DNA from: an uncultured Gammaproteobacteria bacterium
Lineage (GTDB): Bacteria; Patescibacteriota; Patescibacteriia; UBA1558; 2-01-FULL-52-15
Assembly: GCA_964402565.1 (NCBI GenBank)
Contig: CAYOCJ010000002.1
Coordinates: forward strand, 391,340 to 455,339
Length of the DNA: 64,000 bases
Direction of reading: 5' to 3'
This document shows positions 11,146-33,557 of the stretch, piece by piece; positions within the stretch are counted from its first letter, which is position 1; each line of letters opens with the position of its first letter. The translations under genes were made by a program, and so were the position numbers. The notes under the pieces were generated by a model. The model saw only the letters and a program-made list of their open reading frames with translations. It did not search any database and was not told the origin of the DNA.

Positions 11146-11146
11146 T

Positions 11147-12542: not shown

Positions 12543-12614
12543 GTATGAAAACCGTCATAGAGCAAGCCATATGAATGTTCGCTAGCTGCTGTGCAAAAGT
12601 AGGACCAGGAATCA

Positions 12615-12643
12615 TTGACACCAGTTGCTTAAGTTGTTATTAT
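12615..12643 (+). promoter_or_regulatory. Candidate sigma70 promoter for rpsU
   Basis: TTGACA - 17 nt - TATTAT read directly upstream of rpsU. Confidence 0.4.
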
Positions 12644-12671
12644 TTTGGTACTATAGACTATAGAAAGGAAG

Positions 12672-12923: not shown

Positions 12924-12932
12924 TTTACGCTA

Positions 12933-13450: not shown

Positions 13451-15184
13451 ATGCTTACAAAAACAAAAAAACTAATCCTGCTCACGCTTATCGTGACCTC
13501 TGTTGCGATAGGCTTTTTTATTTTTAGAAGCACTGCGGTATTTGCGCAAGCGTCCCTCGACTTCCCCACAAGTTTCGCTGGATTCAGTTCGCAAGATTTG
13601 AAAACCACGATCGAGAATATCGTTCGCATCGTTCTTGGCTTCATCGGATTTATCTTTTTGTTGCTGCTGCTCTATGCAGGTTTTGTATGGATGACGTCAG
13701 GCGGAGACGAGAAGAAGATCACGCGGGCAAAAAAGATCATCGCAAGCTCCGTGATTGGATTATTGCTGACGCTCTCGGCGTATGCCATCGCAAGCTTCAT
13801 AGTGCAGCGCCTGACCGGAGCCGCTGAGAATGGATCTGTCGGCAGCTCAAGTACTGGACCCGGAGGTTTTGGCTATGCGCTCGGCTCTGGTGCTTTGGAA
13901 AGCCATTACCCGGGACGCAATGCCCGCGATATTCCTCGCAATACCAATATCTACATCACGTTCAAAGAAGCTATGGATGTGAAGACCATTTGCGATCCGG
14001 GTCCTGACGGCACCTACGGAACTCCTGATGATCCAAATCGCGTCAATACGGCAAGCATACAGCTCAAAGATATGAATAGCCTGGAGCCTGCTGACTCGAA
14101 CGATACAGCGAACGACGATACGCTTGAGGGAATTACCTGTCAGCCGACGGACGCATCATTGAAGACCTTCAAATTCGACCCGACTGCAAACCTTGGCACG
14201 GGAACGGGTAATGTGCCGTATAATGTGATTTTGGTTCCGCATCAGATCAAAACCGCTGACAATGAAGATGCCTTAGCGTTCGGATATAGCTGGCGCTTCA
14301 CCGTGAACTCGGTTCTGGATGAAACGCCGCCAAAGATCATAAGCGTGTATCCGAATATGGGGGACATAGTGCCTCGCAACAGTATCGTGCAGATTAACTT
14401 CTCAGAACCAGTAGATCCGACCAATGCAGCAGGTTTTTATTCTCCAACGTCAACTCCGGCCTCGCTGTATAACAGTATTACTCTTGACGATCAACCAGCT
14501 CCAAAACCAGCGAATGCTTACTACTTAGCAGGAACGTATGCATCGGCCAATCAATATCAATCTACGGAATTTATTTCGAATGAACTCTGCGGTCAGAATT
14601 CTTGCGGCGAAAAAGTGTATTGTCTGCCCGGATTAATTACTATCTATGGCGAGGTAACCAGCGCTATTACTGATATGGCAGGCAATCATCTCGATGGAGA
14701 GTTCCCGGCACCGTATACATTTCCGTCAGGTGATGGCACGGCCGGAGGTAATTTCGACTGGCGATTCCAGACCACGAATACCCTGGACTTGAAACCGCCT
14801 TTGATGCTGACGCGAAATCCTGGCAGGAATGCGACTGATGTGGATGTGTACAAGCCTATCACCATGGATTTCAATAAAAAATTGTCGGCTTCGAGCCTGA
14901 CCTCGACCAATGTCGGCTTCTATCGCACCTATCCGTATCCAGGAGGCACGGCGTGGGACGATCAGATAAACTATTGGGTTAGTAAAGACGATACAAAGAA
15001 CTTAGATACTGATCCGGAAACCGAGACGCAGGTGATCATCGGCCATGATATTTTCAAACCGCTTACTCCGTATCATCCGGGCGCAAGTTCAGAGATCCGT
15101 GACGTGAGCCAAAACTGTTATTTCCCGGCTCAATGCGATGCGCCGCCCTATGACGGAGTAGGCAGTCTTGCAGAATGTAATTAA
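13451..15184 (+). CDS. Secreted/membrane protein: signal peptide + VirB2/TrbC-like helix-loop-helix pilin module + three SbsA-type bacterial Ig-like domains
   Basis: Signal peptide (AVFA|QA), then IVRIVLGFIGFIFLLLLLYAGFVWMTSGGDEKKITRAKKIIASSVIGLLLTLSAYAIASFIVQRLTG (two hydrophobic helices joined by a basic loop, W-M at the helix-1 end and LTG at the helix-2 end as in VirB2), then Ig-like repeats (PRNTNIYITFKEAMD..., PKIISVYPNMGDIVPRNSIVQINFSEPVDP...). Confidence 0.7.
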   Translation: MLTKTKKLILLTLIVTSVAIGFFIFRSTAVFAQASLDFPTSFAGFSSQDLKTTIENIVRIVLGFIGFIFLLLLLYAGFVWMTSGGDEKKITRAKKIIASSVIGLLLTLSAYAIASFIVQRLTGAAENGSVGSSSTGPGGFGYALGSGALESHYPGRNARDIPRNTNIYITFKEAMDVKTICDPGPDGTYGTPDDPNRVNTASIQLKDMNSLEPADSNDTANDDTLEGITCQPTDASLKTFKFDPTANLGTGTGNVPYNVILVPHQIKTADNEDALAFGYSWRFTVNSVLDETPPKIISVYPNMGDIVPRNSIVQINFSEPVDPTNAAGFYSPTSTPASLYNSITLDDQPAPKPANAYYLAGTYASANQYQSTEFISNELCGQNSCGEKVYCLPGLITIYGEVTSAITDMAGNHLDGEFPAPYTFPSGDGTAGGNFDWRFQTTNTLDLKPPLMLTRNPGRNATDVDVYKPITMDFNKKLSASSLTSTNVGFYRTYPYPGGTAWDDQINYWVSKDDTKNLDTDPETETQVIIGHDIFKPLTPYHPGASSEIRDVSQNCYFPAQCDAPPYDGVGSLAECN

Positions 15185-15185
15185 T

Positions 15186-18100
15186 ATGCATTTCAGGCTT
15201 TCATCACGATTGAAAAAGATCATTCTCGGGCTAGTACTCGCTGGAGGAGTCGCTGTCTTCACGCATAGTGCTCTCGCACAAGTTTCTGTGGATCTGCCGA
15301 CCAGCTTTGCCGGATTCAGTTCGCAGGATTTGAAATTGACGATCGCGAATATCGTGCGGATCGTTCTCGGGTTCATCGGAATTCTATTCTTGTTATTAGT
15401 TCTGTATGGAGGCCTGGTATGGATGACATCTCAAGGACAGCCTGACAAGATCAATAGAGCAAAGAAAATAATCGCATCGGCAGTTATCGGTTTGCTTATC
15501 GTATTATCCGCTTATTCCATCGCAGGATTTATCGTCGGCAGTTTACAGGGAGCGGTCAGCCCGACACCGCCAGGGCCTCCTGCTGTTTGCGGTGATGGCG
15601 CAGTTACCGGCGGTGAGCAATGTGATGATGGCAATACGCTGAATGGAGATGGCTGCTCTGCATTCTGTGCCATTGAAGGCGTTATCCCTGGATGCACATT
15701 GCCGACAGTACCTGGTAGCGTGAAAGTATGTAATGTCACCAATCCTGCCTATCGATCACAGGTCGCTGTTATCAATGGATATAACTTCGGAGCAAGCGTT
15801 GGAACGGTCACTATCAACGGCGTTGCGGTAACGCCGGTCGCTTGCGGACCATCATCTGGCTGGAGCGGCGGTTCTATCGTGGTAGATATTCCTGCAACGA
15901 TACCGCTGGGCACTATCGGAGCGCAGAACGTGGTCGTTACCCGGTCAGATTCTGCTACATGTGCTGCCGGGAATTGCGGTGTCACGAACGTCAGCATTGG
16001 TTCAAGCCCGTTCATCAGGTGTATGACGCCGAATTTCGGACCGTCAAACGGTACCGGCGACATCAAGGTTGAAGGCGGAAACTTCGGCACCGTACAAGGT
16101 AATATTGAAATGGAAGGAGCCGCGCCTGCGCCCGCGAACCGATTCCTCGTAGGAGCTGCGAATCTCATCGGACCGTGGACTAATGAAGAAGTGCACTTCA
16201 GAGCGCCGGCAGCCGGGGCCCCTCAACAAGCAGTGTCAGGCGATGTAGTGCTGGTCACTTCTACAGCAGCGCGAAGCAATGGCATGCCGTTCACCGTGAC
16301 CTGTTCTGTGGCAAGCAGCGCTTCATCAGAGTGTGCGACTAACTGTTGCACGCCTTCATTGCAATGCCGTCCTATGCTTGAATGTGTTGCAGCTGCTGCA
16401 GGAGGGCCGTTCATCTCGAGCATTAATCCGAATAATGGAGAAGAAGGGAATTATGTCACGATCAATGGAAGCGGCTTTGGAGCCGCCAGGGGAACGAGCG
16501 TTTTGCATTTTTTGTGGCCTGACGCAACCAATACAGATTATCCAAATAGTTTCCCATCGAACCCTGCTTGTACAGCAAACTGGTCAGACACCCAGATCAT
16601 CATGGAGGTTCCGCCAGTGGGCGGGGTAGGAGATGGCCCTGATTCACCGCCGAATGGCATCGTATGGGTGACCACCGGCGTGGGAGATTCAAATCAAGTT
16701 CCATTTACGATCAATGATATCGTGCGCCCGGGCCTCTGCAAAGTTTCACCGACATCTGGCTTCCCGAATCTGCCCCCGCCTTTCCATCTGAACGGAAATA
16801 ATATGTCTGGTGCTGCTCAGAAGATCTTTTTCGGCGTACCTCCGGGCATTGATGCGACCAGCCCGAACTTTATCGATGCGCAGAATGCGGATGGCATGAT
16901 CCCGAATCTGATAGCAGGCACGACGACCGTTGCATTTTCTGTGGGTGTCGGCGCTGCAACTCAGTATTCGAACCCATTGGACTTCGCAGTGCTCGGTGTC
17001 GCTGCAGGAGATCCTATCATCAATTCGGTCACTCCACTGAGCGGACCATCAGGAACCTATGTGACCATACAAGGTGCGAATTTTGGAACGACGATCGGGA
17101 AAGTGTTCCTGAGCCCCATCGGACATCCAGGATGCGGCCCCGGTTCTCCGTCGCCTACGGGCAATGATTGTCTTGCAGATATTGCATTTCCTGCGATGTG
17201 CAGCACTGATTTCTGGCGTGACGACCAGATCATTGTGAAAGTTCCGAAGACCGGACCTCCAGGCAATACGCCAGCGGGGAATTATTTCTTCATCGTTCAG
17301 CGGGCGAGCACGCCGGTGAAAACATCTCAAATGGTTTCGATACCTAATACGAATGGTATCTTTGTAAAAAATGACGCGTTGCCTGTCACCCCAGGGTTGT
17401 GCCGCATCAATCCCGTCGGAGGTCCTGCAGGAACGCCGGTAGATTATTTTGGTGAAAATTTCGGAGTCACCCCTGGTCCGCAAAGCTCAATTTGGTTCGA
17501 TAAGGATGCCGGCGTGACGACAGGTTTCACCTGGACCGATACGCAAGTCCTTGGCGCCGTCGTACCGGGCAGCGCTATTACGGGCACGACTACCGTTCAG
17601 CACAATGACCGTAATCGCAGCAATCCGATCCCGTTCTTTGTCGGGTCATGTACTTCAAACCTACAATGCGGCAGCGCTACGTGTTGCAGCGGCGTGTGTC
17701 GCGTGGGTGCTTGCAATGCAACGACGCATGATGAAAACAACTGGCAGTTCACGTCAGGACAATATGATTTCGATCTTGAACGCAGACAGCAATGCACCGA
17801 GGGAATGCAGACACCGACGCCATTCCCGTATGATCATGTGAATATGAACTGGGATGGATTCTTTGACCCGGTCATCCTGCCGGTCTATGACGAGAATGAT
17901 CCAATAACCAATGCGCCTCTGGACGTTGCGATCGCCGCAGAATTTAATAGGCCTCTAAATTATGCGACCATCGAAGGTCCGTTGCCGGCATTTACTGACA
18001 ATGGTGTCCGCATTTTCAGATGCAATGCTGCAAGCCCGACGTTTAATGGCACCGGATGTACTGAAGTTACCGGTGATGGAGATTTTGCACCGCTCGGCAG

Positions 18101-21100
18101 CGTTGGCTTCAAGTGGACATTGCATAGTGGCCTGAAATTGAATCCGGAGACGTGGTATGAAGTTCGTCTTGATGACGGGTCCGGAACGCCGACAAGCCGC
18201 ATACAGGCAGTCGACGGCAGCTTCTATAAAGGAAGCCAATTCCTCGGCGATGATACTTCTTTGCAGGAGCCTGATGACTTTAAGTGGCATTTCAGAACAC
18301 GGACCGTGGTACAGGGAAGCTGCGAGATCAATGCGGTCTCGCTCAATCCGGCGACGTTGACCGTGCCGGTCGGCGGCATAGGCGGGCCGATGGTCGCCGT
18401 CCCGACCAGCGCTCAGTGTTATGTGTGCGGCGGCGATTATCTGTATGACTGGGATCCAAATCCTATCGGCGCAGCTCCATATGCAACCTATAATCCCGTC
18501 AATCCGCCTTTTTCCTATCAGACTAATTTTTCAGGTTTGAATATAACGCCTGCACCGGTAGATATAACGGCGACATTGCGCGGGAGCAGCAATCCATCAG
18601 GTATTCCGATTACGAGCAATACCGCAGCGCTGAGTGTCGCCTTTATACCGCCGTATGTGACGAGCCATTCTCCTGATTCAAGCTGTGAAGCGGTGTGCAG
18701 GAACGTAGCGCCCTTTGCGACATTCAATATGAATGTCCGCTCGTCAACGATCACGACTGCCAATATACAGATACGACAATGTAATGCAGCGGATCCGCTG
18801 TGTACGACATATACAGGCGGGCCAGTGCCGATCACGCTCGTCCCATTACCAGCTGCACCAGATACCAATCGTGTCGACATCACGCCGACCGGCGGTTTGC
18901 TTCCAGCAACAAAATACCGCGTTATATTGACTAACGGCATTCAGAATTCACAGGGCCAGGGTCTTACATTATTGAACTATCCTTCAGGCGCGCCGACATC
19001 GTATTCATGGACTTTCCAGACTTCATTAGCGATTTGCGAAGCTGATGGTCTCAATGTGACGCCGGTCACTGCAACCATACCATCGCTTGGCGGCACGCAA
19101 GATTATATTGCGCATCCGACCGCTACGCTGAATTGCGGATCAGGCCCTGTGCCAGTTGGCATTGATGCAAATCGATACAACTATGGCTGGTACTCAAATA
19201 ACTTCACCGTAGCAACGATGATGTCGAGCACGTTGAACCAGGGCACTATGCAGGGAGTTAGTGCAGTTTTGGGTATACCGCCCGGAATAACGCAAGCGCA
19301 TGTAGATATGACGAATAAGGCTGGCAATCCAGCTGTCAATCTTTCAGCTGAAGGCGAAGTGGTTGTAAAAGATTCCAGAAAGCCGATAAATTTCATCGGC
19401 CATAGGCCTGATGATGCGCCGCATTCACCGCCGGAAAACGCTTCAGCTGCATGTGCGGTGCAGCCACCCGGAACGGCCGATCCGCTGCAATGCGCGAATC
19501 AATGCAGGAACGTACAGGTCAGTGCATTCTTCAGCACTCCCATTGATCCGAATTCATTTGCATCAGGACCTCCTTCAGGACTTGTTGCGCGCTATACGTT
19601 CGATGATGGAACCGGCAAAGATGTCGTCGGCGGCAATACTGCTGTTCTTGCAGCTGCACCGAGCGACCCGGCTGCTGTGTCAGGCGCACAATGCGTACTC
19701 AATAGATGTATGGACCTTGACCTCGGAGCTCCGCCGTTCAGCGCAAGTTCTGATAACATGACGGTGACTAATTTCAGCGGACTGCCAACCAATGAAATCA
19801 GCATTTCGGCTTGGGTAAGCGCAAGGACATTCACCGGCGTGGGCCAGAGAATTCTTGGCCATGATTGGGCGACTACCAATACTCCTGGGTGTACAGCTGG
19901 TCAGGCAAACGTTGGGGGTAACCCAGCGAACCCGCCATGCGTCTATAATCATGGATGGCTCTTATATGCGTATGCTCCGGGCGATTTCTATTTCGGAGTT
20001 TACGGTTCGCCGTGGAACGATCAGCATGTTGCTCGCTTTACAGCACCGACCGCATCTCCAAATACGTTGTATCATCTGGTAGGCACCTATGATGGATCGA
20101 TCGTGAAACTGTATGTGAATGGCGTGGCAGCTCCAGATGCAAATGGCTGGAGCCCGTCAACGCCGTCACCGATCGTACTTGATACCACAGGCGATGTAGT
20201 GTTCGGCTCTTCATTCGATGGCGCTCTTGATGATGTTCAGATCTATAATCGCGCCTTGTCACCGGTCGAGGTTAGCCAAGTACGCTTGATGGCCACTGGC
20301 GCTGCAGGCGCATCGGCCAATTTTAATGTGACTGACATGGCCACTGGTGCTGTCGTACCTGGAACGATCTCGGTCCATAATTACCAAGACCCTGCCTCGG
20401 GTGTTTGTACGATAAATACAGCAGTCGTTTGTAATCCCTCTCTCGCATGTCCGGCAGGAGCAGGTGAATGCAATTATACGCGGGGACGTGTCGACTTTAC
20501 CCCGGCGCTTGCATCTACCGCTGCATCTACTGCAGGGCTGGTTTCGAAGTATAGTTTCGACGCAGGGACTGCTCAAGATGAAGTTGGTGCGAATAATGGC
20601 ACGCTGAACGGAGGAGTAATCGCAACAGCGCCGAATGCTTCAATTCCGTACCTGCAAGGAGGCATGAGCCTTGATGGCGTCGATGATAATATTTCATTCC
20701 CCGCAGGGACAAACTATGACTATCCTAATTTTACGGTTTCATTCTGGGCCAAGGCAAATACGGTGGCATTGAAGCATGTCACCACAATGATCGGCAAGGG
20801 AGATTGGAATGATCCTGCGAATCACAATTGGTACCTAGGGTTTAAAGGCCAAGACATAGCCCCGCGAGATGCAACCAGTGTTTCATTCGTCTATGGTGTG
20901 CCCTGGGATAGCGGAGCATCATTAGCAATGTCCAGCTTTGATGCAACGCAATGGCATCACTATGCCGGCGTAGCTACTCCGACAAACGAGTATCTCTATA
21001 TAGACGGCACATTGCGCGCATCGATTGCGGCCGGCCACGCAAGCGTTAGCAATGGCCAGCCGGGTACGATCGGACACACAAGCTATATACCAAATCTGCC

Positions 21101-24100
21101 ATTTTTCAAAGGCGAGGTCGATGACGTACGTATTTTCAATCGCGCATTATCTGCCGGCGAAGTGAATCAGATCCGCCAAGAGGCCTTGGGCACTGCCGCA
21201 TCTCCTGGCGTCTTTGCACCAAGCACATCGTATAAAGTAAATATTTGTAATGCCGGTTCATGCTCATTGCAGCCGATCCTGAGCGATGAAGGTATGCCGT
21301 TCGTGACGCCATTGAATTTTGCCTTCAAAACAAAGGATGATGTTTGCCAGATCAGCTATGTCGAAGTATCGCCGAATCCGGCAGAGTTCACTGACCGTAG
21401 ACTCGAGTGTCTAGCGTCTGATGCGCCGCTTTGTACGAATGCAACGCCAAAAGCCATCATAGCTCAGGCGAAAGACCAGACCGGTTCTGATCTAACGGCC
21501 GCATATACCTGGCGGAAGACCATTGAGAAAGGTGGGTCCTATTCAAGTCAGATGTATGTACTGGATCAGTCAGGCACTCAGGCCCAGGTTCAGCATAAAG
21601 GCGTCCTCGGTATTGATTATAATGAGGTCACTGCTGATGGCGGCGTCGCCGGCACCGCTAAAGCTCAGGGCAGAATGGATTTCTCATTCTGCGAGAAGCC
21701 ATGGATAGGCGATACTGGTCCGAATACCGCATACTATCTGGATCCGACCTATGACTTGAAACTTTCATATTGCCGCGATGCGGCAGGTTTGAGCGAGCCG
21801 ACTGCTACCAGTACGCTCCCGAATTTGCCGGCACCGCATATCATTCGCTCAGGAACTGACTTCACATTCGGCGGCGACCTGATCAAGGAGCATGTGTTTA
21901 TCGTCGGTACGAATGTGAACTCTACCGGCACGCTGACCAGCGGAAATCCGGTACTGACGCCGGTTACCGGCATATCAACGACGAATTATCATCTCGGCGA
22001 TTTCGTGTATATCAAGCTCGATGCCCGCGATCCAGAAGGCGATTCATTCTTGTATACGATGACCGGCGAAGGCGGCGCTGATGCATTGCCTGCATCTGCA
22101 AGCTTCAATCCGCGCACCGGTGTCTTCATGTGGGTAATAGACAAAATACCGACGACGAATGGAGACGCGAATGCAAATAATGACTTTGCCATCACCTTCA
22201 ACACCACGCCTGCCTCGACCGGTGCTTCGACGGTCTATATCAACGTTGTGCCGACAACCACCACAACGCCAGTGAACCCTCCGGTGGTGAGCTTCACCAG
22301 TGCAACGGTGCCAGCTCCGCCGCCGCCAGCAATTATCGAGGGCGGAACCATGAATATCGATTACGGCAAGGAAGTCATCTTCAATACCAACGTGACCGGC
22401 TATGGCGGCGGTGCAGCCGGTGTCGTCAAATCATTTGTCTGGGATTTCCAGGACTCAGGCCTTACCTCGTATACTGATATTGGCGCGCCCACCTATAGTG
22501 CTCGGCACACGTTCCTTCAGTCCGGATTGCATCAGGTTACGTTTAGAGTACAGAATAGCGCCAATGCCTGGTCATTGCCGGCAGTCGTGAACATTATTGT
22601 CCGGCCAAAGACATCAATGCTTGATCCGTCCCTGTCTTCGCGCTCAGTGGCAATTGCAGGTTCTCCGTTCAAAGCGCTTATTGACGGTTTGCGTTCATTA
22701 TTCGCGCGAACCGCATTTGGTCAGTCACAGGGCGCTGCACCGTCAGAGGTGGCTGCTGTTTCAGTCGACGATGCTTCAACAACGAATAACCTCGTGAATG
22801 TACAGCTCTCGTGGAGAAATAACGGGACCTATAACGGCATCAAGATTTATCGAGATAATGCTGCCGTGCCGATCTATACCTCGCCAGCTGGTCCAATACC
22901 GACCACCTACACTGACCCAGGCCGTACCATCGGCACCGACTATGTCTATAAGGTCTGTGGGATTATAGGCACAGCCGAGAAATGCACTGAAGTCACGACG
23001 ACCGCTCGCCGCGTAGACTATGACATTATCGTTGCGCGCGTCTACCGGAATATTGGCATGCTTTCTGTGCGTGAATGGTATGAGGCCTATGCGCCAAATC
23101 CGACCGGCAGTCCGGCTTCGATAACGGTTGACGGTTATGACGCGATCAAGGATGGCTCCTCGGTATATGTAGGCATGGCTAACTGCGTTGACCCGGTGGC
23201 CTGTACGGGCAACCCGGGCATCTATACGAATATTTTGCTCCTGAGTTATAACGAGAATGCTCAGCAGTCTACCAAGGATATTTTCGACCAGCTCGTCAGC
23301 ACTATCCGTATTAATGAACGGTTGGTGACCCGCGACAATGGACGCGGCGCCTCGGATACCTGCAGCGGTGATGCAACGATCTCATGCGATACTGGCCATG
23401 ATGCGGTTTGTCAGGCAAAGAATGCCGGTCTCTGTACATCAGCGAAAGCAGAACTTCGCCGTGACCATAAGCGCGTCGTGGACTTGCATAGCATCAAGGC
23501 AAGTTTGGATGGCTATGCGCTCCAGCACCATTTCTGCGATGATGGAACCAATTCACGGGCGTGCAATGTTGATAGTGATTGCGGAGCGGGGCGGCGATGT
23601 ATTGCAGCGTACCCATCGCTCTCTTCAGGAAGCTATTTGGGAGGCATTTCAACGAGCCAGTGGCCGTCATGGAACGCAACCCTGGCACAGGATTTGAACA
23701 GCAGTTCATTGCCGAAAGATCCTATCAATAAATTCGGCGCAAATTTCTATTCAGCAACTCCGGCAAGCTGTCTGACACTTGTCGATGGGGCAGGCAATCC
23801 CGTGACCGGCCATGACAAGGACACGTGCTGGAACCAGAGAACATTGAAGATGCAATGCCAGAGGTATTCGGAAGTCTATGTCTACAAGAATTCCTTAGGA
23901 TCAAATTATAATCTATACGCGAATGCCGAAGCTCGAACGTGGCGCTGGGCAAACCTCGACACGCATGTCATTCTGACTGACCCGACGCTTGGCAATTTGT
24001 GCTTAGACAATGCGCGCGTCAATGCGGTGTGCGGCAATGGCGTCGTTGAGCGCTACTGTTCGAACAATAGTTCACAGTCATGCGCAGCGGATGCTGATTG

Positions 24101-26837
24101 CGGCGCTGGTAATACCTGCGTCGGTGAGCGATGCGACGGCGGATTTACGAATTATTGCGATTACCATTTTGGAGAAGCACGCTGGAATACCGATTTCACA
24201 GTCGGTTGTAATGCAACCTGCAGCGACTGGGGTGATCCGTATGCGCCAAACACCGCAACTGCCGGCCGCGCTGCATGCGGAGGAGCGTGTGGCGACGGTA
24301 TTGCTCAGACGCCTGCTTCGTCTCCGCCGGGCCCAGAACAATGCGATGGCGCAGCGCCTGCAACAACACATTGCACCAGCGGCGGGGCTGCGTATTGTAC
24401 AACGTCATGCCAGGTAGCATGTACGCAAGGCAGGCCATATAGCGGTACGTGCAATGACGGTATCGTACAAGCAGGCGAAGTGTGCGACGAAGGAAATATT
24501 TTGAACGGAACACCTGGTCATTGCAACCGAGCTTGCTCGGGCTATGGTTCTTTCTGCGGCGACGGAACGCTGACCCCTACTACTCAGACAGATCTGGGCT
24601 GCACCTGTGATTCGGCAGTCAGCTGTACGGCAGGCAGAGCTGTTATGGGCGCTGTGTGTGCCCGTTCATGCGCGGCTGCAGGACCAGCGCATCTGTATTC
24701 CTGCGTCAGCAATACAGAAGAGTGCGACACAGTCGCGGGGCTTACTAATTATAGCTGCCCTGCAAATTCAACATTGTATTGCGATACACAGTGTAACCGG
24801 GCTTGTACTGCAGACCTGAGAAATGATACTGCGGGCAACCGCCAGAGCATCCCGGTCTATGAACATTATTATAATGTTGCCAATGATGAGGATTTCGATT
24901 ATACAACCTTGAAAGTAGCTGATGCTCCCTATACGACCAAAGGCATCGCATTCTATGCAAACCCGCTAGGCGCATGCCCTGGACCAAGCGGCGTTACCGT
25001 TAATCGTTATGCGAGCACGACCAATAAGGATATTATCCTTAGGACATCGCTTCCTGCAGGCTCATGGACGCTTCTCGGCCCCGAGTTTTGTGCCTACACA
25101 GGAGCAGTAGCGGCAGATTCCAATATTGTGCCGGTTTACGACTGGGCATATTCGCCAAGTTCGAACCCGAAGACAAGTTTGCCGTCTGATTCGGATCATA
25201 AATTCTCGCGCAGCAGCTCGACAGCGCCGATCAACGGTGAAGGAACGAGTTATGTGATCCAGAATTCAGGATCGCCGATCTTCTGGGCTCGCCTCGGTCC
25301 ATTGCAGGAAACATGCGGCAATGATGTTCTCGAAGGCCTCGAAGAATGCGAACCAGGCACATACCAAGTGCCGACCGCTGAACAGGCGACGAGCGATAAT
25401 CGCCAGTATCAATGCGGCGCCGTATTTACGCCGAATGCATGCAGATTGTATGGAGGCTGGTGCGGCGATGGAGCAAAGAATGATCCATTCGAACAATGCG
25501 ATGAAGGTTTGCGATTCGTCTGTTCGGGGAATGCTGCAACGACCTGCAAGAATGATGATGATTGCAGCAAGCTCGGCTACGGCACCTGCCTCGGCAATGG
25601 CGCGCCCTGTAATAATGCGGCAGGAAACTGCACCTATTGCACTAAGTCATGCGGCAATGGCCTGATACCGCGCAATTATTGCGGCGACGGCATCGTGAAC
25701 TGCGGTGTGGACGCTATCTGCGGTAATGCAGACGATGTAGAGATCTGTGATGACGGAGCCGATAATGGCAAATCCTTGAAATGCAATGAGACGTGCAGCG
25801 GTTTGACCGGTACCGTATGCGGCAAGAATGGCGTCGAGAGATTCTGCAGCAATAACTCAGCTAATAAATGCGACACCCCGGGTAATCAAACGCTCTGTAC
25901 TACCGGAGGAGGCGTCTGCACTGGTGAAGTGTGTGACGATGGCGTCAACAATGGCCGCTGGACCAATACCTGCAGTAATAATGCAGATTGCAGGACTGAT
26001 GCTGATTGCGGCGCATTCGGCCCTTGCGGATCAGGTACGCCGCATGCATTCTGCAATTTCAGCTGCTTGGGCCCGACGGTTCCGTATTGCGGCGATGGCG
26101 TCGTGGAGGCAAGAAATGCTGGTCCTGATGGTAAGATCGTTTGTAGTAATGATGCTACGAAGACCTGCACGCAAGATGCTGCTGGTGACGCATATTGCAG
26201 AAGCCTTCCTGGCGGGACTCCCGCGGATGCGTGCAATAAAGATTATGTGACTGAGGTTTGTGACCTTGGCGCTGCGGTGAATGGCCAGCCAGGACAATGC
26301 AATGCGTCCTGTACTGGTCTTGCTCCATCACAATGCGGTAATGGCACCATTGATAATGGACGATGCACTATTAATGTGAGTAAGCCATGCACATCTCCTT
26401 CGGATTGTACTTCTGCTGAGGGGCAATGCCGGGGGACTGGGACTTGTACACTGAATGCGAATAAAACATGTCAGGATGATAGTGGCTGCTTGGCCGGAGA
26501 AGGTACCTGTGCAGGAGTAGAGACTTGTGACCAACCTTCGTCAGCGCCAGTCTTGCAGGCATGTAATGACGACACCTGGGGAGCACCTGGTAAGCCTGGT
26601 CTACAAACTGTCGGGTGTAACCTCTGTGTCTCTCAAAGTACCCAATGCCATGCATTCGGTTTGAAGATCTGGTCTGATGGAGCAGATGTTGCTTACCTGA
26701 ACGGGCATATGATGCTGCTTGATTTGGCGCCGCCGGGAGCACAATGCGTCGCAGATCCGTCACCGAATGGCGCTGATTATTCTGATGCCATTGCCGAAAG
26801 CCCAGCTCAGCCCAACAGTAATAAATGTGTTCCATAG
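15186..26837 (+). CDS. Giant (about 3880 aa) cell-surface protein: VirB2/TrbC-like pilin module + TIG/Ig-like domains + two LamG domains + PKD + FN3 + large cysteine-rich repeat array
   Basis: N-terminus paralogous to 13451 ([81 protein letters not shown]). First [27 protein letters not shown] repeat, then TIG-like repeats ([20 protein letters not shown]). LamG pairs ([19 protein letters not shown]...[41 protein letters not shown]...[15 protein letters not shown]). PKD (FVWDFQDSG...[17 protein letters not shown]). At least ten CG[DN]G...E.CD.G repeats through the C-terminus. Start taken at MHFRLSS (15186). Confidence 0.85.
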   Translation: [3883 protein letters not shown]

Positions 26838-26859
26838 AGTTTGATCGTGTACGGAGCAA

Positions 26860-29800
26860 ATGTCTCGAGTGAACATGAAAAGGCATTTTACCTATAGCAA
26901 ACAGAAGACAAAGGCGCATGAACTCGGTGCGCTTTTGGCATTATTGATATTCGCAGCTGGTTTTTTTTCCTATGTCCGTGTTCAACACATCAAGATACGA
27001 GATCTTGGCAAAGCACAGCCGGTCTATGCACAGGCTGCTCCGAATAATATTACATTTGTCCAGCAAAATGCGACCGGGACATCAGGCACTATTGCGCCAA
27101 ATGTTATACTGACCGCGCCGGTCACCGCAGGCAGCTTGCTGGTGCTTTCAGTAAACATAGTCGGTGATATCACGCATTCGATCAATAGCGTTACTGATAC
27201 GCAAGGGAATACCTGGGTACAGGCTATCGCGAAACATGATCATAATGATGCAGTATTCGTCGCAAGTCAGGAGCTATGGTATGCAGCCAATGCCAGAGCC
27301 GGGGCAACGACCATCACAGCAAATCTAAATGCGACATTAGGAGCGACCAATGCACGGCTCTACGCGCATGAATACCAGGGTGTTGCAACCTTGAATCCGC
27401 TCGATCAAACATCGTGGGCCATTGGCTTTGATCCGCCGCCATCTGCAAATGTGATATCTCCGTCGCGTACAACCTTTTTCCCGAACGAACTTATTTTTGC
27501 AGGTTCAGAAACGTGGGGTACACCGAACCCAGGTCCTGGATTCACCACGCGCGGCACCTTGAATTTGGACTATACGGAAGATAAGAATGTGAGCACAGTC
27601 GGCAGCAATAACGCGATTGTTCAGGTTGCTTCATGTGGAGGCAATTGCAGCTGGATGATACAGATGGCAACCTTCAGGGCATCTGCGCAGCCGAATCCAG
27701 TGCGTTTCTATAAGATGGACGAAGGATCAGGTTCCACCGTGCTCGATTCGTCAGTGTTCAATGCTCCGGGCACCAGTTACGGTTCGCCGTTGCCGACCTA
27801 TATCACTGGAGTCGGTCCATCCGGCACTGCTCTATATTTTAACAATGCCTCACAGTGGATCGAGAGCGATTGGCCTCCATCGCCTTCGCTTGATATTAGA
27901 AATGATTTTACTATTACCGCCTGGGTCAATTTTTCTTCAGTGGTGAACACGTATCCGCGTATTTTCCAAAAAGGAAGGCAAATAGCAAGCCCGACTGCAT
28001 TTTCATTAGGCATCAATACTCCCGGTGGAGTGTTGCGTCCTGAAGTTCGTGCACGCATCGGAGGCACCGAGTACTCTTCAGTGGACCCCTCGAATATGAG
28101 CATCAATACCTGGCATCATATTGCCGGCGTTCGCAATGGCACCAGTTTGAAAATCTTAGTTGATGGCGTTTTGAAAAATACCGTTGCCATACCAGCGGGC
28201 ACCATCGACCTGAATAGCGGCCAGACCGCATACTTGGGCGGCGGTCCGGTCGATGGCAGAATGACCGATGGCGGCATGGATGAGGTGCATGTATCAGCCC
28301 GCGCATTAAGCGATGCAGAGGTGCTTGCTGAATATCAAAGTTATGATAATCAGCCGCCTTCTCCCATTGTAAATTTGAGCCCCGCAGATGCGGCGACCGG
28401 CGTTTCTATCAATCCGACGTTGACCGCAACAACTGCATCAGACGCCACCCCTCCGATACAATATAATTTTGAATTATTCACGACGCCTGGCTGCAGCGGC
28501 GCCTTCACGCAGGCACGAGGCTACGCTGCTTCGACGAGCTGGATCCCGTCAACGCTCACCATGGGGACTACCTACTACTGGCACTATCGTGCGCGGGATT
28601 CAGCTGCATCGCCGAATGCGAGCGGATTCAGCGCGTGCACCTCATTCACCGTCGTTTCTGATACTAATCCGCCGACAGGAGTGGGGAATGTTTCTCCAGC
28701 CGATGCATCCGCAGGTATTTCTATAAACCCGACGCTTGTTGCCGCAACAGCAAGTGATGCTACGACGCCGGTACTGTATAATTTTGAACTGTGGTCCGGA
28801 GCTGGATGTACCGGTACGCTGCTTCAGTCAGTTGTGAATTATGCCCCGACAAATTGGAGCCCCACGACGCTTGCCTACGGCACTACGTACTACTGGAGAA
28901 ATCGAGCTCGTGACTCTGTAACACCGACGCCAAATCAAAGCGCGTACGGGCCGTGCTGGGCATTTACAACCTCATTGGTAGGCCCGGTAGCCTATTGGCC
29001 TTTCAATGGCAATGCGCAAGATGCAACAGGTAATGGGTATAATGGTACGTTGCAAAATGGACCAGGGTATGTCGCAGGGCGCGTGAATCAGGCTATTGGA
29101 ATGAATGGCATCAGTCAGCGCGTCGATATGGCGAACCCCGCCAGCGGGTTAACAGATATTCCTGCGAAGACCATCATAGCCTGGATCAATATGTCCTCAG
29201 GCTCAGGCAATACCTATAAAGATATTCTGGTGAAAGGCGATGCAGGCTGCGGCTGGTGGTTATCGGTCATGAACAGCAGCTTTGTACATTGGGGTCAATG
29301 CTTCTCTTCTGGCACATATGGCTCATGGGGGTCCCCGGCAGGATCAATTACGGCCAACCAATGGTATCAGGTAGCGGTGACCTATGATAATTCTAGCGCA
29401 GCGAATATTCCAACGTTCTATATTAATGGATCTCCGACTGCTTTGACCACGATCGGCAGTCCGATCGGCACGGTGAGCAGCGATGCACCATATTTGGTTT
29501 CAGCAGGCGGAGAGATACCAAATAACAATGAAAATTTTGGCGGCACTATTGATGAAGTGCGTCTTTATAATCGGGTACTGTCCGCTGCAGAGATTTCCAG
29601 CATTTATGCAGCTGACGCTGCCGCTGTGTGCGGAAATAATCTAAAAGAAACTGGCGAAACATGTGACGGTGCTGATCTTGCAGGCGCATCATGCACGACG
29701 CTTGGTTATTTCGGCGGCACCTTATCCTGCAACCCCACATGTACAGGATATGTCACTTCTTCCTGCACGAATTGCGGCAATAATACTATCCAGGCCGGTG

Positions 29801-31245
29801 AAACATGTGACGGCACGAATCTCAATGGCCAAACCTGCATTAGCCAGGGATTTGCCGGCGGAGGCACGTTAGCGTGTAATGCGTCATGTACTGCGTTCAA
29901 TACCGGTGCCTGTATCGCACAAACCTGCGGCAACAATCTTCGTGAAGGAAGTGAAACATGCGACGGAACTGATCTGGCCGGCCAATCCTGTACCACGGTG
30001 CCTGGGGGTTATATCGGCGGCACGCTTTCTTGCCAGCCAAGTTGTGCTGCATTCAATACAGCGAGCTGTACGCCGCCGCCGGTCACGACCGTACCCGATC
30101 AATCAGCTCTTTCCACTTCTGATCTCAGGCCGGTAGATGCTGGAGGTAATTCAATTGCGGGATCATGGGAACGGGACGGCGCTAATGTAGTCGCGATCAA
30201 AGTGTGGGCTCCTGCGGGACTTTCTCGCAGCTTCGAAGCAGTCTATACCAGCCCGACGATCAATACTATCTTTTATACGTATAATAACGCCGCGAATTGG
30301 GCATGCTCGCATACGTATACGCCGGGCTGGAATCAAATAAGTTGCCCGACACATTGTTCGAATAATCGAACCATAGCATGTACATTGGGTAACAATACCC
30401 CGTGCGGCGCTGGTCGATGCACTTCAGATTGCGACCCACTCGAGCCATCGACGACCTGGCGATCGCCGTTCTCCTATACGGGCAATGCGGCGTATCCGCT
30501 GTGCAGAACGAGCTATCCCAATTTTGTCGGCAGTTCGGCGAAGTGGATCTGGGGCGATAGCTGCAGTCAGAATGTGGTCTATTGCAGGCTTGAGTTCGGT
30601 ATTGATCTTGGCGGAGGATCGCCCTATCAGCCTGGCGCGTATTGTGGCGATGGTATCGCGCAAACATCTGCATCGAGTCCGCCAGGACCAGAGGAGTGTG
30701 ATAATGGGAGTAACAATGGAGCATGTCCGAAAACATGCAGTTCACAGTGTCTGAGGAATGACTGCACATGTACCGGCCCTCTCTGTAGCGGATGTTTTAT
30801 CACAGGTACGAAAGTATTAACACCGTCCGGCCCTCGCGATATCAATGACCTTAATGTTGGCGATCCGGTTGTATCGTATGATGAGGCGACAAAGCAAAAG
30901 GCTATTGCGTATGTCGAGTTGCCCCGGTCTTACTCGCGGGACCATTACTATGTGTTAAATGGTACTATTCGCGTCACTAAGGAGCATAGATTTGCTGTGG
31001 TAGATGCAGAAGGAACGATCACCTGGAAACCAGTCATGGATCTTTCTATTGGAGACAGGTTCGTGCTTGATACAGGGAAGACCATATCTCTTGCTTCGAA
31101 AGTGCTGCATACCCCGGCGCAATCAATCCAGGTCTTTAATCCCGCACTTTCATATCCGCATACCTACTATATCTGGGATGGCGCTGAATATATTCTTGTT
31201 CATAATGCAAAGTGCACAACTCCACGTTGTGGCGGAGGGCCATGA
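26860..31245 (+). CDS. Large (1461 aa) surface protein: TM anchor + LamG + 2x FN3-like + LamG + 4x cysteine-rich repeats + C-terminal Hint (Hedgehog/intein-like) domain
   Basis: N-terminal TM helix. LamG (VRFYKMDEGSGSTVLD...MDEVHVSARALSDAEV; VAYWPFNGNAQDATGNGYNGTLQNG...IDEVRLYNRVLSAAEI). Two FN3-like repeats (NLSPADAATGVSINPTL...YYWHYRARD). CGNN..ETCDG repeats. Hint domain from CFITGTKVLTPSGP through TKEHRF to ILVHNA. Confidence 0.85.
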   Translation: MSRVNMKRHFTYSKQKTKAHELGALLALLIFAAGFFSYVRVQHIKIRDLGKAQPVYAQAAPNNITFVQQNATGTSGTIAPNVILTAPVTAGSLLVLSVNIVGDITHSINSVTDTQGNTWVQAIAKHDHNDAVFVASQELWYAANARAGATTITANLNATLGATNARLYAHEYQGVATLNPLDQTSWAIGFDPPPSANVISPSRTTFFPNELIFAGSETWGTPNPGPGFTTRGTLNLDYTEDKNVSTVGSNNAIVQVASCGGNCSWMIQMATFRASAQPNPVRFYKMDEGSGSTVLDSSVFNAPGTSYGSPLPTYITGVGPSGTALYFNNASQWIESDWPPSPSLDIRNDFTITAWVNFSSVVNTYPRIFQKGRQIASPTAFSLGINTPGGVLRPEVRARIGGTEYSSVDPSNMSINTWHHIAGVRNGTSLKILVDGVLKNTVAIPAGTIDLNSGQTAYLGGGPVDGRMTDGGMDEVHVSARALSDAEVLAEYQSYDNQPPSPIVNLSPADAATGVSINPTLTATTASDATPPIQYNFELFTTPGCSGAFTQARGYAASTSWIPSTLTMGTTYYWHYRARDSAASPNASGFSACTSFTVVSDTNPPTGVGNVSPADASAGISINPTLVAATASDATTPVLYNFELWSGAGCTGTLLQSVVNYAPTNWSPTTLAYGTTYYWRNRARDSVTPTPNQSAYGPCWAFTTSLVGPVAYWPFNGNAQDATGNGYNGTLQNGPGYVAGRVNQAIGMNGISQRVDMANPASGLTDIPAKTIIAWINMSSGSGNTYKDILVKGDAGCGWWLSVMNSSFVHWGQCFSSGTYGSWGSPAGSITANQWYQVAVTYDNSSAANIPTFYINGSPTALTTIGSPIGTVSSDAPYLVSAGGEIPNNNENFGGTIDEVRLYNRVLSAAEISSIYAADAAAVCGNNLKETGETCDGADLAGASCTTLGYFGGTLSCNPTCTGYVTSSCTNCGNNTIQAGETCDGTNLNGQTCISQGFAGGGTLACNASCTAFNTGACIAQTCGNNLREGSETCDGTDLAGQSCTTVPGGYIGGTLSCQPSCAAFNTASCTPPPVTTVPDQSALSTSDLRPVDAGGNSIAGSWERDGANVVAIKVWAPAGLSRSFEAVYTSPTINTIFYTYNNAANWACSHTYTPGWNQISCPTHCSNNRTIACTLGNNTPCGAGRCTSDCDPLEPSTTWRSPFSYTGNAAYPLCRTSYPNFVGSSAKWIWGDSCSQNVVYCRLEFGIDLGGGSPYQPGAYCGDGIAQTSASSPPGPEECDNGSNNGACPKTCSSQCLRNDCTCTGPLCSGCFITGTKVLTPSGPRDINDLNVGDPVVSYDEATKQKAIAYVELPRSYSRDHYYVLNGTIRVTKEHRFAVVDAEGTITWKPVMDLSIGDRFVLDTGKTISLASKVLHTPAQSIQVFNPALSYPHTYYIWDGAEYILVHNAKCTTPRCGGGP

Positions 31246-31326: not shown

Positions 31327-32223
31327 ATGTTTGAAGACATAAAAAAGAATGATGAGAATGTGACCGCTGGCAACCCTTCAGCAGTTGAAGATATGTTTGG
31401 CAAAGTTGACCCAACCCCAGATATAAAGAGCGCGGTGCAGAGCGGTAAATTAACTCCGGTAGCTTCATCAATGGCAGCTCCTCAACCGCCGATGCCGCAG
31501 GCGCCGATGGGTACCAAGATCGGACCTCCGAATCCATTGACCAATCTTTCACAGCTCGATCAATGGAGCAAAAAACCTGCTCGCCGCAGCATGAGAATGA
31601 TTTTGATCGTTGTTGCAGCTTTGATCGTCGTCGGCGCTGCTATTGCCTACTTCTTTTTTATGACGCCGACAGAGGGTTCGAATGCAACTGCTAAAAATAC
31701 TACAGCGAATACCAATGCCACAACGAACACCGATACTACCGCCAACGCACAGCCAACACCTCCTCCGACTGCGAATGAAAACGGTAATCAGGCTCCAAGC
31801 ATACCATCCAATGCCCTCATTGACTCTGATGGCGACGGGCTGACAGATGTAGAAGAAGCTGTCGCTGGCACTGATCCTCATCTAGCTGACACTGATAATG
31901 ACGGTTTGAATGATCGCGATGAACTCTATGTACACAAAACAAACCCATTGTTAGCTGATAGCGATAACGACGGCCTCTCTGACCGCGACGAGATCTTTAC
32001 CTATAAGACAAATCCTATGAACCCGGACACCGATGGCGATACCTATCAGGATGGGGTTGAGGTGCAAAATGGGTATAATCCGAATGGCCCCGGAAAACTT
32101 CCTCCGACAGAAACTCCACCGAACGCACCTATAGATCCAGCCCCAACGCCCGCACCTGCTCCCACACCTTCTCCAGCTCCTACACCTACGCCCGCACCTG
32201 CTCCGGCTCAATATACATACTAG
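31327..32223 (+). CDS. Type II membrane protein with thrombospondin-type-3-like calcium-binding repeats and a Pro-rich tail
   Basis: Pro/Gln-rich N-segment, TM helix (ILIVVAALIVVGAAIAYFFF), T/N-rich linker, DSDGDGLTDVEE / DTDNDGLNDRDE / DSDNDGLSDRDE / DTDGDTYQDGVE repeats, then a PAPTPAPAPTPSPAPTPTP tail. Confidence 0.7.
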   Translation: MFEDIKKNDENVTAGNPSAVEDMFGKVDPTPDIKSAVQSGKLTPVASSMAAPQPPMPQAPMGTKIGPPNPLTNLSQLDQWSKKPARRSMRMILIVVAALIVVGAAIAYFFFMTPTEGSNATAKNTTANTNATTNTDTTANAQPTPPPTANENGNQAPSIPSNALIDSDGDGLTDVEEAVAGTDPHLADTDNDGLNDRDELYVHKTNPLLADSDNDGLSDRDEIFTYKTNPMNPDTDGDTYQDGVEVQNGYNPNGPGKLPPTETPPNAPIDPAPTPAPAPTPSPAPTPTPAPAPAQYTY

Positions 32224-32249: not shown

Positions 32250-33557
32250 ATGCCAGACGAGCAACAGCCATTAACAGCCGAACAGCAACCTCAAGCTCCC
32301 GAGGCTTCGATGCCGCAGGCATCTGCGCCCTCTGGTTCAATTTATACCATGCCGGATAAGTTCATGATGGGAGGCGGGCAGCCGCGTTTTTCAACTGGCG
32401 CAGCACCCGCAGGCTCTTCAGGCGGCGGCGGTTCAGGCAAACGGATGGTGATCATCATTGCTATACTGGCCTTATTTTTAGGCGGCATGACAGCCGGAGC
32501 TTACTTTTATATCAATAGCGGAGGAGACTTCTTTGGTTTGCTTTCAACAAATGAGCCTGTAGCGCCAGCAGTTCCGAACCCGCCGCCAGCCACCAATCAG
32601 CCAGTTGCGAATACCAATACAACACCTGAGAAACCGCAAGATGATCAATCAAAACTTGCTCGCGATGTGCAGCGTTCGAAGGATTTGGTCGTTCTTGCGA
32701 AAGCCCTCCAGGATTATTTTGCAAAATATAATGCATTTCCTCAGATCTTAGACTCGATTCCGAAAGATATGCTGGCAGAGCTGCCAAAGGATCCCTTGTC
32801 AGACAAGGCCTATGAGTATACGCCGCTGGATAATCGTGCTTCATACGGCATCGGCATTGTTATCGAGAAAGAGTTAACTTACAACGGCAAGACCTATCAG
32901 TCTGGTCCTGTTGTTCTGCATTCAGAGGGCTATCAGACAGCAACGTCTACACCGCCAATTACGGATCAACCAGTACCGCCGACCCCTGCCCCTGTTGATG
33001 TGAGCAATCTCGATTCAGATTCAGATGGTCTGACAGCCGCAGAAGAAAGTTTATTCGGCACGTCACCTTCGAACCCTGATTCAGACTCTGACGGGTACCG
33101 AGACAATGTGGAAATTAAGAATTTTTACAGTCCGGTGGAAACAGCTGCGGTGAAATTAGACCAGGCCGGCCTCGTGAAATTGTATACGAACGATGTTCAA
33201 AAGTTCAGTTTCTATTATCCGAGTTCCTGGGTCGTGAATGCGCCTGATGCGGACGGAGCTGAAACTCTCGTCACGACAGGGACTGGCGAAAATTTCAGCG
33301 TCTCGGTGAAGGAGAATGCGGACAATAAGACTTCCTGGGAATGGTATACGCAAAATATCAGCCATGACTATAACCCAAACAGCGTGTCCATCGTGCAGAT
33401 CAGCGGACATGAAGCGATCAAAACATTGGACGGTCTGCAGGCATATCTGGCTGTTGGCGGGAAAGTATATCTCATCACGTATAATCTGAATACTGAGTCA
33501 GTGATCCGATACCCATCCATCTTTGCGATGATGCTGGATCATTTCACGCTTCATTAA
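32250..33557 (+). CDS. Type II membrane protein with pseudopilin-like (GspG/type IV pilin-like) motif and TSP3-like repeats
   Basis: Pro/Ala-rich N-segment, TM helix (MVIIIAILALFLGGMTAGAYFYI), LAKALQDYFAKYNAFPQ...LPKDPLSDKAYEY (resembles GspG ALEGALDMYKLDNSRYPT...LPQDPWGSDYQ), then DSDSDGLTAAEE / DSDSDGYRDNVE repeats. Confidence 0.6.
   Translation: MPDEQQPLTAEQQPQAPEASMPQASAPSGSIYTMPDKFMMGGGQPRFSTGAAPAGSSGGGGSGKRMVIIIAILALFLGGMTAGAYFYINSGGDFFGLLSTNEPVAPAVPNPPPATNQPVANTNTTPEKPQDDQSKLARDVQRSKDLVVLAKALQDYFAKYNAFPQILDSIPKDMLAELPKDPLSDKAYEYTPLDNRASYGIGIVIEKELTYNGKTYQSGPVVLHSEGYQTATSTPPITDQPVPPTPAPVDVSNLDSDSDGLTAAEESLFGTSPSNPDSDSDGYRDNVEIKNFYSPVETAAVKLDQAGLVKLYTNDVQKFSFYYPSSWVVNAPDADGAETLVTTGTGENFSVSVKENADNKTSWEWYTQNISHDYNPNSVSIVQISGHEAIKTLDGLQAYLAVGGKVYLITYNLNTESVIRYPSIFAMMLDHFTLH

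Follow-up and report, generated by a model that had tools for sequence, protein, structure and literature searches.

A giant pilin-anchored, multi-module protein encoded in a conserved Patescibacteria locus is a candidate host-contact fibre

We analysed a 64,000-nucleotide (nt) stretch of bacterial DNA (the window; positions 391,340 to 455,339 of contig CAYOCJ010000002.1 in GenBank assembly GCA_964402565.1) with emphasis on a single giant open reading frame (ORF) at 15168..26837 on the forward (+) strand, the strand on which all features described below are located. The product of this ORF, which we call the giant, has an N-terminal pilin-type membrane anchor followed, in order, by one DUF4215 unit, about five TIG modules, a Big_5 domain, two LamG modules, a PKD domain, an FN3 module, a domain that we call domain X, and about 11 cysteine-rich repeats. 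We estimate a probability of about 0.6 that the giant is a membrane-anchored, fibrillar host-contact surface protein of a bacterium of the Patescibacteria (also called the candidate phyla radiation, CPR). The ectodomain of approximately 3,760 residues contains domain types that are typical of extracellular proteins, from which a role in binding outside the cell can most reasonably be inferred. Dozens of Patescibacteria species have collinear pilin-anchored giants within this syntenic block, and these share a core of pilin, TIG, Big_5, domain X, and cysteine-rich repeats. Because of this distribution, the giant is, as judged from comparative gene order, a core surface structure and not a strain-specific accessory gene. 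A preliminary description of this DNA had considered the gene accessory, which does not hold for the whole gene.

The 11.65-kb gene is real. Counted from a TTG at 15168 it has 3889 codons, and counted from an ATG at 15186, 1 nt past the stop of the upstream gene, it encodes 3883 amino acids (aa). The same signal peptide results from either start. The uninterrupted frame had been noted in the preliminary description, where the start at 15186 was combined with a length of 3889 aa; each of these values is valid but they belong to different start codons. An identical 3889-aa product was called in Logan assemblies SRR12313480 and SRR12313479, which are separate per-run assemblies, and both Logan contigs match the window from 13021 to 35761 (22.7 kb) at 100% DNA identity. 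Repeat scans of the ORF detected no tandem repeat and no direct DNA repeat longer than 31 nt. With two identical independent assemblies and no long repeats, a collapsed-repeat or chimeric assembly is unlikely. The G+C content of the gene (52–53%) is close to the window value. A chimera, a collapsed assembly, or a pseudogene in decay that was taken for one ORF might still be suspected, because the sequence source is metagenomic, the 3' tail resembles a domain that has been truncated, and the two closest relatives have contigs that stop within the gene. However, in addition to the agreement between assemblies and the lack of long repeats, 3889 codons are free of stops and collinear orthologues exist in at least 29 species as well as in the orthologue P0025. 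We consider such an artefact extremely improbable.

The first 125 aa of the giant (15186..15560) consist of a signal peptide and a pilin hairpin, as determined with Pfam and a hydropathy scan. The Pfam T4SS_pilin family (PF18895; T4SS, type IV secretion system) matches aa 48–116 with 30.9 bits against a cutoff of 26.6, and there is a weak NCBIfam Mbov_0395 pilin-like match at the N-terminus. The Sec signal peptide is hydrophobic at aa 11–31 and ends in ...ALA/Q. It is followed by two transmembrane helices at aa 49–84 and 91–122 with the short basic loop TSQGQPDKINRAKK between them. Since the hydropathy scan found these three segments to be the sole hydrophobic stretches in the giant, the other approximately 3,760 residues all lie on the same side of the membrane. 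The giant sequence shows neither an LPXTG motif nor any other anchor at its C-terminus. The preliminary description had referred to this module as pilin-like. Its pilin character holds; it is a VirB2/TrbC-type T4SS pilin hairpin and not a type IV pilin. The prepilin-peptidase motif G/F-T-L-I-E is absent from the six-frame translation of the whole window. At 3883–3889 aa, the giant does not have the size of the small subunits (about 100–150 aa) that T4SS pilins form.

The pilin module is common, with 28,196 database representatives at E ≤ 1e-3. In many of the top-scoring matches, the module is at the N-terminus of a protein of 2200–4067 aa, indicating that the architecture of the giant is common and unannotated. 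The same module occurs in stand-alone pilins of 100–290 aa at 50–70% identity. As a separate observation, the database protein P0018 (1775 aa) contains 17 tandem VirB2-like pilin modules and several further top matches hold 5–11 modules. This "poly-pilin" arrangement is a second unusual use of the module.

Behind the anchor is a single cysteine-rich acidic repeat of the DUF4215/TIGR02232 type (aa 134–164; 15585..15677). It was detected by Pfam (27.3–31.4 bits, aa 134–161), TIGR02232 (45.5 bits), and a local hidden Markov model (HMM; 26.8 bits), in agreement with the isolated copy noticed at this position in the preliminary description. About five TIG/IPT-like Ig modules follow (aa ~175–850; 15708..17735). 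Pfam recovers TIG in two stretches with E values of 4e-9 to 1e-11, and self-comparison shows an internal duplication in which aa 401–582 resemble aa 603–804. This TIG stalk is kept in nearly all orthologues. A Big_5 bacterial Ig-like domain is located at aa 1155–1279 (18648..19022; Pfam 34–44 bits), between two stretches (aa 850–1150 and 1290–1470) to which no domain family was assigned. The two lectin-like LamG modules (aa ~1470–2005; 19593..21200) match Pfam Laminin_G_3 in two stretches with 127.9 bits and PDB entry 4qvs with an E value of 1.8e-9, and they are 33% identical to each other in self-comparison. Two more LamG modules are encoded by the next ORF, and mutual identity among all four is 27–33%. 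The preliminary description was correct about four LamG copies in two ORFs; they span about 10 kb (nt ~19,600–29,600) and not 5.7 kb.

A PKD domain (aa 2395–2461; 22368..22568) just exceeds the Pfam cutoff of 23.5 with 24.1–25.4 bits and is 43–69% identical in the related loci L004–L009. An FN3-like module (aa 2519–2605; 22740..23000) was recognised from a structure model only. The single-sequence AlphaFold model of aa 2512–2612 has seven strands and a predicted local distance difference test score (pLDDT) of 73.9. When this model was compared with the PDB using Foldseek, the top 50 matches were almost all FN3 with probabilities of 0.98–1.00. Pfam gave no FN3 match in the giant, and a homology search with aa 2005–2612 returned no matches. 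Together, these results bear out, with corrections, the multi-module architecture proposed in the preliminary description. Its TIG-like repeats, Ig-like modules, two LamG domains, and PKD domain are all recovered by Pfam, as are T4SS_pilin and DUF4215, but its FN3-like module is supported by the AlphaFold and Foldseek results and not by Pfam.

When 78 related loci were searched with local BLAST and HMMs, they yielded 29 fused giants (1974–3915 aa) with the pilin module at the N-terminus and domain X further inside. Each of them is preceded by a second pilin-anchored protein of approximately 520–700 aa. In the window, this second protein is the 577-aa product of the upstream gene (p577; 13451..15184), which has a signal peptide, a VirB2-like T4SS_pilin hairpin (36.6 bits), Big_5 Ig-like domains (61.1 bits), and a weak TrbC match. 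The pilin modules of p577 and the giant are 63% identical in amino acids and 71% identical in nucleotides, and orthologues of p577 precede the giant in about 50 loci. At least 13 other loci are split and encode a pilin-anchored protein of about 900 aa, a pilin-anchored protein of approximately 1600–2200 aa that ends in FN3, and a protein of approximately 700–1400 aa consisting of a signal peptide and domain X. The counterpart of the giant is thereby divided between a pilin-anchored stalk of approximately 1900 aa and a secreted protein with domain X and cysteine-rich repeats. The surrounding gene order is conserved, with lepB-hisS-(rpsU)-yqeY upstream and genes for a TSP3-repeat protein and for p435, then ybeY, ftsA, and ftsZ downstream. 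The cluster is tightly packed and co-directional.

The fused giant has what appears to be a trace of the split arrangement. A linker between PKD and FN3 (aa 2474–2518; 22605..22739; ...FARTAFG/QSQG), delimited by aligning junctions with orthologues and split loci, resembles a decayed signal peptide and lies at the site where other lineages have a stop codon and the start of a new gene. The same decayed linker is present in L004, L005, and L006–L009, L012 keeps a hydrophobic segment there, and split loci have genuine signal peptides at this junction. Such a linker is as expected if the two split genes had been fused. Together, the fused and split arrangements make a natural Rosetta stone pair, which suggests that the domain X protein and the stalk protein work together.

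Domain X (aa 2613–2937; 23022..23996) is an uncharacterised domain of approximately 320 aa that we saw only in Patescibacteria-type assemblies. It has a PsbP/Mog1-like N-terminal sub-domain, cysteine-rich loops, and a long helix, and its C-terminal half is rich in beta structure. Its homologues are from Patescibacteria wherever a source is named, and in most of these proteins of 800–1400 aa the region is directly behind a signal peptide. A scan of one genome per species confirmed 313 relatives, and all 80 of these that were listed are from Patescibacteria-type assemblies. The assemblies include Uhrbacteria, Falkowbacteria, Kuenenbacteria, Nomurabacteria, Parcubacteria, and Gracilibacteria; other records have only generic titles, among them contigs or chromosomes of approximately 0.8–1.0 Mb. 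An AlphaFold model of domain X has a mean pLDDT of 64.7 with the N-terminal sub-domain confidently predicted at 83–92. Neither Foldseek nor a sequence profile found a match to domain X in the PDB. We also considered whether the second half, and a helix motif in p435, represent type IV pilin/GspG-like heads. No Pfam, PDB-profile, or Foldseek match supported this, and hhalign against genuine CPR type IV pilins gave a probability of 1%. In L024, L028, L030, and L070, two or three tandem genes encoding a signal peptide and domain X occur apart from the pilin-anchored genes. Domain X is thus also a multi-copy secreted family.

Two conserved neighbours downstream of the giant encode membrane proteins. 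The TSP3-repeat protein (298 aa; 31327..32223) matches Pfam TSP3_bac, a calcium-binding type of repeat, with 82.8 bits and is syntenic with the giant in about 48 loci. The adjacent p435 (32250..33557) combines one transmembrane helix with TSP3-like motifs and ends in a PsbP-like domain that weakly matches Pfam PsbP_2; it has orthologues in 41 related loci. The PsbP-like domain of p435 is, by profile comparison, homologous to the N-terminal sub-domain of domain X (hhalign probability 97.6%, E 3.6e-12). A helix motif is the only further element common to domain X and p435 (hhalign probability 75%).

Although the core is conserved, not all modules of the giant are constant. Compared with its closest relative, L004, the pilin anchor is 81% identical, the N-terminal part of domain X 75%, PKD 69%, and the C-terminal part of domain X 66%. 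By contrast, identity to L004 is 42% for LamG1, 37% for the first TIG block, and 35% for LamG2. Among the orthologues, LamG, FN3, and a cysteine-poor insert in the C-terminal array are confined to the window, L004, L005, and P0025, and P0025 has one LamG module rather than two. From this distribution in few relatives and the 35–42% identity to L004, the LamG pair is a recent, fast-diverging, lineage-specific insertion in an otherwise conserved scaffold. The preliminary description of the protein as fast-evolving and modular therefore fits the LamG pair and the next ORF, but it does not fit the anchor and domain X, which are conserved at 75–81%. The module gain and loss for which it recommended a comparison of orthologous loci is seen in the LamG pair, in the single copy in P0025, and in the next ORF, which has no orthologue.

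The C-terminal cysteine-rich array begins at aa 2949 and thus covers approximately 935 aa, including the cysteine-poor insert, and not the last 1200 aa or so that had first been described. Block 1 (aa 2949–3212; 24030..24821) has about four degenerate DUF4215-type units by motif scan, local HMM, and BLAST, and several of these units hold cysteine-rich loop insertions. The insert (aa 3213–3375; 24822..25310) was delimited by cysteine density, and in the module map its homologues are in L004 and P0025 only. It may resemble DUF5648-like lectin repeats; Pfam gave no match. Block 2 (aa 3377–3830; 25314..26675) has about seven units by motif scan, local HMM, and self-comparison. The motif CG[DN]G occurs nine times in the C-terminal cysteine-rich region where approximately 0.1 occurrences are expected from a rough estimate based on residue composition. 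Curated profiles run on the whole giant call one DUF4215 unit with Pfam and two stretches with TIGR02232, and they call no unit when the C-terminal cysteine-rich segments are scanned alone. A local DUF4215-type HMM built from canonical units of the homologues detects three strong and about eight weak units. The claim of ten or more repeats in the preliminary description thus agrees with the approximately 11 units found by the local HMM, three of them strong, but not with the one or two called by curated models. Most units have extra cysteine-rich loops between the CG[DN]G and E-x-CD-x-G halves. BLAST connects the units to Pfam-annotated DUF4215 repeats of P0002 and P0017 with E values of 1e-6 to 1e-9. 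As judged by self-comparison, the array is an old duplication, with aa 2948–3129 and 3544–3722 being 37–45% identical.

The 3' end of the giant differs from that of its orthologues. The tail (aa 3831–3883; 26676..26834) aligns to the first part of the C-terminal domain that the collinear orthologue P0025 has behind its cysteine-rich array, and this domain is also unbroken in L006 and L007. When the P0025 C-terminus was used in tblastn searches, its residues 1–82 matched 26520–26789 and its residues 114–236 matched 30163–30603 in the next ORF. The approximately 3.4 kb between the two halves contain the stop of the giant, a new start with a signal anchor, two LamG modules, FN3-like repeats, and cysteine-rich units. 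Because the domain is contiguous in orthologues and its halves are 3.4 kb apart here, the most economical explanation is recombination of a cassette carrying LamG into what was once the 3' end of the giant gene. Cysteine-repeat words of 21 nt are shared at 25677, 26085, and 30640, and the cassette may have entered via homology between cysteine repeats. With such an insertion, the giant would end in only part of a domain and the next ORF would be chimeric. In L006, an ORF at 9784–11349 that bears the usual C-terminal domain of the giant shares 180 nt with the giant gene (1427–9964) in a different frame. A longer gene has probably been split here by a frameshift, which may be genuine or a sequencing error.

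The next ORF (26860..31245; 1461 aa) has its own signal anchor, two LamG modules, and cysteine-rich units. It also contains the latter half of the giant's ancestral C-terminal domain and ends in a Hint domain, as shown by Pfam and PDB entry 2lwy. Two apparent FN3-like repeats were read by eye from the translation. No orthologue of this LamG-Hint protein was found in the sampled loci, where all matches were due to cysteine-repeat similarity only. The Hint/bacterial intein-like (BIL) domain is at about 30790–31206, begins with C-F-I-T-G-T and ends with L-V-H-N. It matches 2lwy with an E value of 1.1e-7 and is just under the Pfam cutoffs for PT-HINT and Hint_2. Only 12 residues (AKCTTPRCGGGP) are behind it. 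This suggests a self-cleaving or ligating C-terminus on a LamG/cysteine-rich surface protein with no toxin attached. The combination of a toxin behind Hint and an immunity gene that marks polymorphic toxins is found neither in the giant, in which no Hint domain was called, nor in the next ORF.

These observations lead us to propose the following mechanism. The giant would be exported by Sec and cleaved by signal peptidase, with the hairpin staying in the membrane and the basic loop inside. The Ig-like modules would form a wall-crossing stalk that is tens of nanometres long, and the conserved domain X and the cysteine-rich end would be the distal part of the fibre. In split lineages, the domain X protein presumably docks non-covalently on the stalk. 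The lineage-specific and fast-diverging LamG modules could add specificity by binding glycans or proteins on a host or partner cell surface. Modules would be gained and lost by recombination, in some cases apparently between cysteine-rich repeat units, and one recombination event apparently severed the ancestral 3' end into the next ORF. More broadly, two VirB2-like-pilin-anchored Ig-rich proteins, domain X in fused or secreted form, and the TSP3 and PsbP-like membrane proteins might constitute a conserved fibre system, although we put this forward only tentatively. The genes in question are all between hisS-yqeY and ybeY-ftsA-ftsZ, and in this study the system would be limited to Patescibacteria-type assemblies.

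Several points weigh against a host-contact fibre. Adhesion and a ligand are purely inferred from domain families, and LamG is in the middle of the chain and not at the tip. No gene for T4SS machinery such as VirB4, VirB6, or VirD4 was found among the scanned ORFs of the 64-kb window. The tail looks like a truncated domain and part of the giant may be degenerating. The conserved locus is tied to cell-division genes, which fits a housekeeping envelope structure equally well. If so, the cluster would build a constitutive surface layer or a scaffold that spans the wall, perhaps in coordination with division, and would not act in host recognition. The strict synteny with ybeY-ftsA-ftsZ and hisS-yqeY over many species, the conservation of the anchor and domain X relative to L004, and the conserved TSP3 calcium-binding and PsbP-like partners are all consistent with this, and the sole solved sequence relative is annotated as an S-layer-domain protein. 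On the other hand, lineage-specific lectin-like insertions and fast divergence of the stalk and LamG modules are more typical of interaction surfaces, Pfam and NCBIfam scans found no SLH or known S-layer self-assembly domain in the giant, and the ftsA-ftsZ neighbourhood may simply mirror conserved gene order in small genomes. We therefore regard a core envelope scaffold as quite improbable.

A pilus-borne adhesin is also unlikely, but it has points in its favour. Here, a T4SS encoded elsewhere would pull the pilin module out of the membrane and polymerise it together with short pilins, and the giant and p577 would be minor or tip-like subunits. C-terminal extensions of F-type pilins are displayed on the pilus exterior. 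The module of the giant clears the Pfam T4SS_pilin cutoff, and it is shared at 50–70% identity by the stand-alone pilins described above. Patescibacteria have T4SSs and arrays of VirB2-like pilins (PMC12102498), and predicted pilin subunits of the T4SS cluster of a Saccharibacterium are essential (PMC10633639). However, in about 78 relatives the conserved neighbours up to 10 kb from the locus, like the scanned ORFs of the window, include no T4SS machinery (VirB4, VirB6, VirB3, or a coupling protein such as VirD4). A 3,760-aa appendage on a subunit of approximately 90 aa is difficult to square with helical packing unless the subunit is rare, and we found evidence of polymerisation for no member of PF18895. 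The Hint domain of the next ORF raises the further idea that the giant presents or delivers a toxic C-terminal module as a contact-dependent or polymorphic toxin and that the neighbouring Hint frees the toxin, since Hint/BIL domains are of the class that releases toxin tips in polymorphic toxins. But no toxin, Rhs, LXG, filamentous-haemagglutinin, or immunity-like domain was found in the giant or its neighbours, and just 12 residues follow the Hint domain. We consider a toxin very improbable. The membrane-anchored host-contact fibre is thus the reading we prefer.

The giant has features in common with several known systems. Its first 125 aa have the signal peptide, two helices, and short basic loop of VirB2/TrbC pilins (PF18895), and its tandem arrangement with p577 resembles the pilin arrays that have been reported. 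Unlike the described pilins, which are small, the module of the giant carries a 3,760-aa ectodomain and is away from T4SS genes, and it is more likely to be an anchor than a polymerising subunit. With DUF4215/TIGR02232 "Myxococcus cysteine-rich repeat" proteins, the giant shares the CG[DN]G-x-E-x-CD-x-G unit, and its homologues carry DUF4215 arrays. The copy behind the anchor and two C-terminal copies match this family well, whereas most of the approximately 11 C-terminal units contain extra cysteine-rich loops and score too low for the curated profiles. Also unlike that family, the repeats of the giant form two duplicated blocks flanking the cysteine-poor insert.

There are also parallels with fibrillar adhesins and the giant proteins of the CPR predator Vampirococcus lugosii, giant membrane proteins that were proposed to be fibres for host recognition and contact (PMC8080830). 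These are similarly very long, with an Ig-like stalk (TIG, Big_5, PKD, and FN3 in the giant), lectin-like modules, a single membrane anchor, and rapid module turnover. By contrast with fibrillar adhesins, the anchor of the giant is an N-terminal pilin hairpin and not an LPXTG/sortase signal, a type I secretion system retention module, or an autotransporter. The distal end would be domain X and the cysteine-rich array, and the gene is in a conserved syntenic cluster where it is alternately fused or split. Pam pili (bioRxiv 10.64898/2026.03.03.709456) are also CPR-restricted Ig-fold fibres from a conserved operon with a proposed role in host contact. However, they are polymers of small pilins assembled by donor-strand exchange with chaperones, whereas the giant is a single polypeptide with another anchor. 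Pam pili also occur mainly in Saccharimonadia and Microgenomatia beside ATP synthase genes, and the locus and lineages of the giant are different. On these comparisons, we consider the giant a protein of the fibrillar-adhesin kind that has a VirB2-hairpin anchor and domain X and is encoded, fused or split, in a conserved Patescibacteria locus. Our literature searches found no description of pilin-anchored giants, domain X, or this cluster.

A central question is by what means the ultrasmall Patescibacteria attach to their hosts and exploit them. To our knowledge, the only experimentally supported contact tools are type IV pili, T4SSs with essential pilins, and a few adhesins, all of them in Saccharibacteria. 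In the Saccharibacterium Southlakia, predicted pilin subunits of the T4SS cluster and multiple adhesins are essential for epibiotic growth (PMC10633639, PMC11665869). CPR genomes commonly encode surface proteins of the lectin and FN3 types (PMC5220378), and a survey that found VirB2-like pilins, often in arrays, to be widespread among Patescibacteria reported no adhesins of the kind of MPF-FATA PrgB in its dataset (PMC12102498). The locus described here is a concrete and widely conserved candidate for a contact apparatus in other classes (Uhrbacteria, Falkowbacteria, and Parcubacteria-type). If the hairpins link these proteins to the T4SS/VirB2 apparatus, which is essential in Saccharibacteria, the giants could be the missing adhesin arm of that apparatus. 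These results also illustrate that what looks like a giant accessory adhesin in one window can prove to be a core syntenic gene in which only some modules are variable.

Some further features of the window were noted. The small gene rpsU (12676–12922), which encodes ribosomal protein bS21 and was unlisted, is behind a near-consensus promoter at 12615–12643 (TTGACA-17-TATTAT with TG). This promoter may drive rpsU-yqeY and the surface-protein genes. The rpsU stretch is the only nucleotide-level match of the window to L004. A conserved non-coding RNA that we considered at 12614–13017 (87% nt identity to L004) is instead rpsU with its promoter, and tRNA and Rfam scans of the 64-kb window found nothing. 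The parA-parB genes are at the start of the window (287–1926), so the locus may be near the origin. The window also contains the competence genes comEC and dprA (39619–41070 and 5824–6705).

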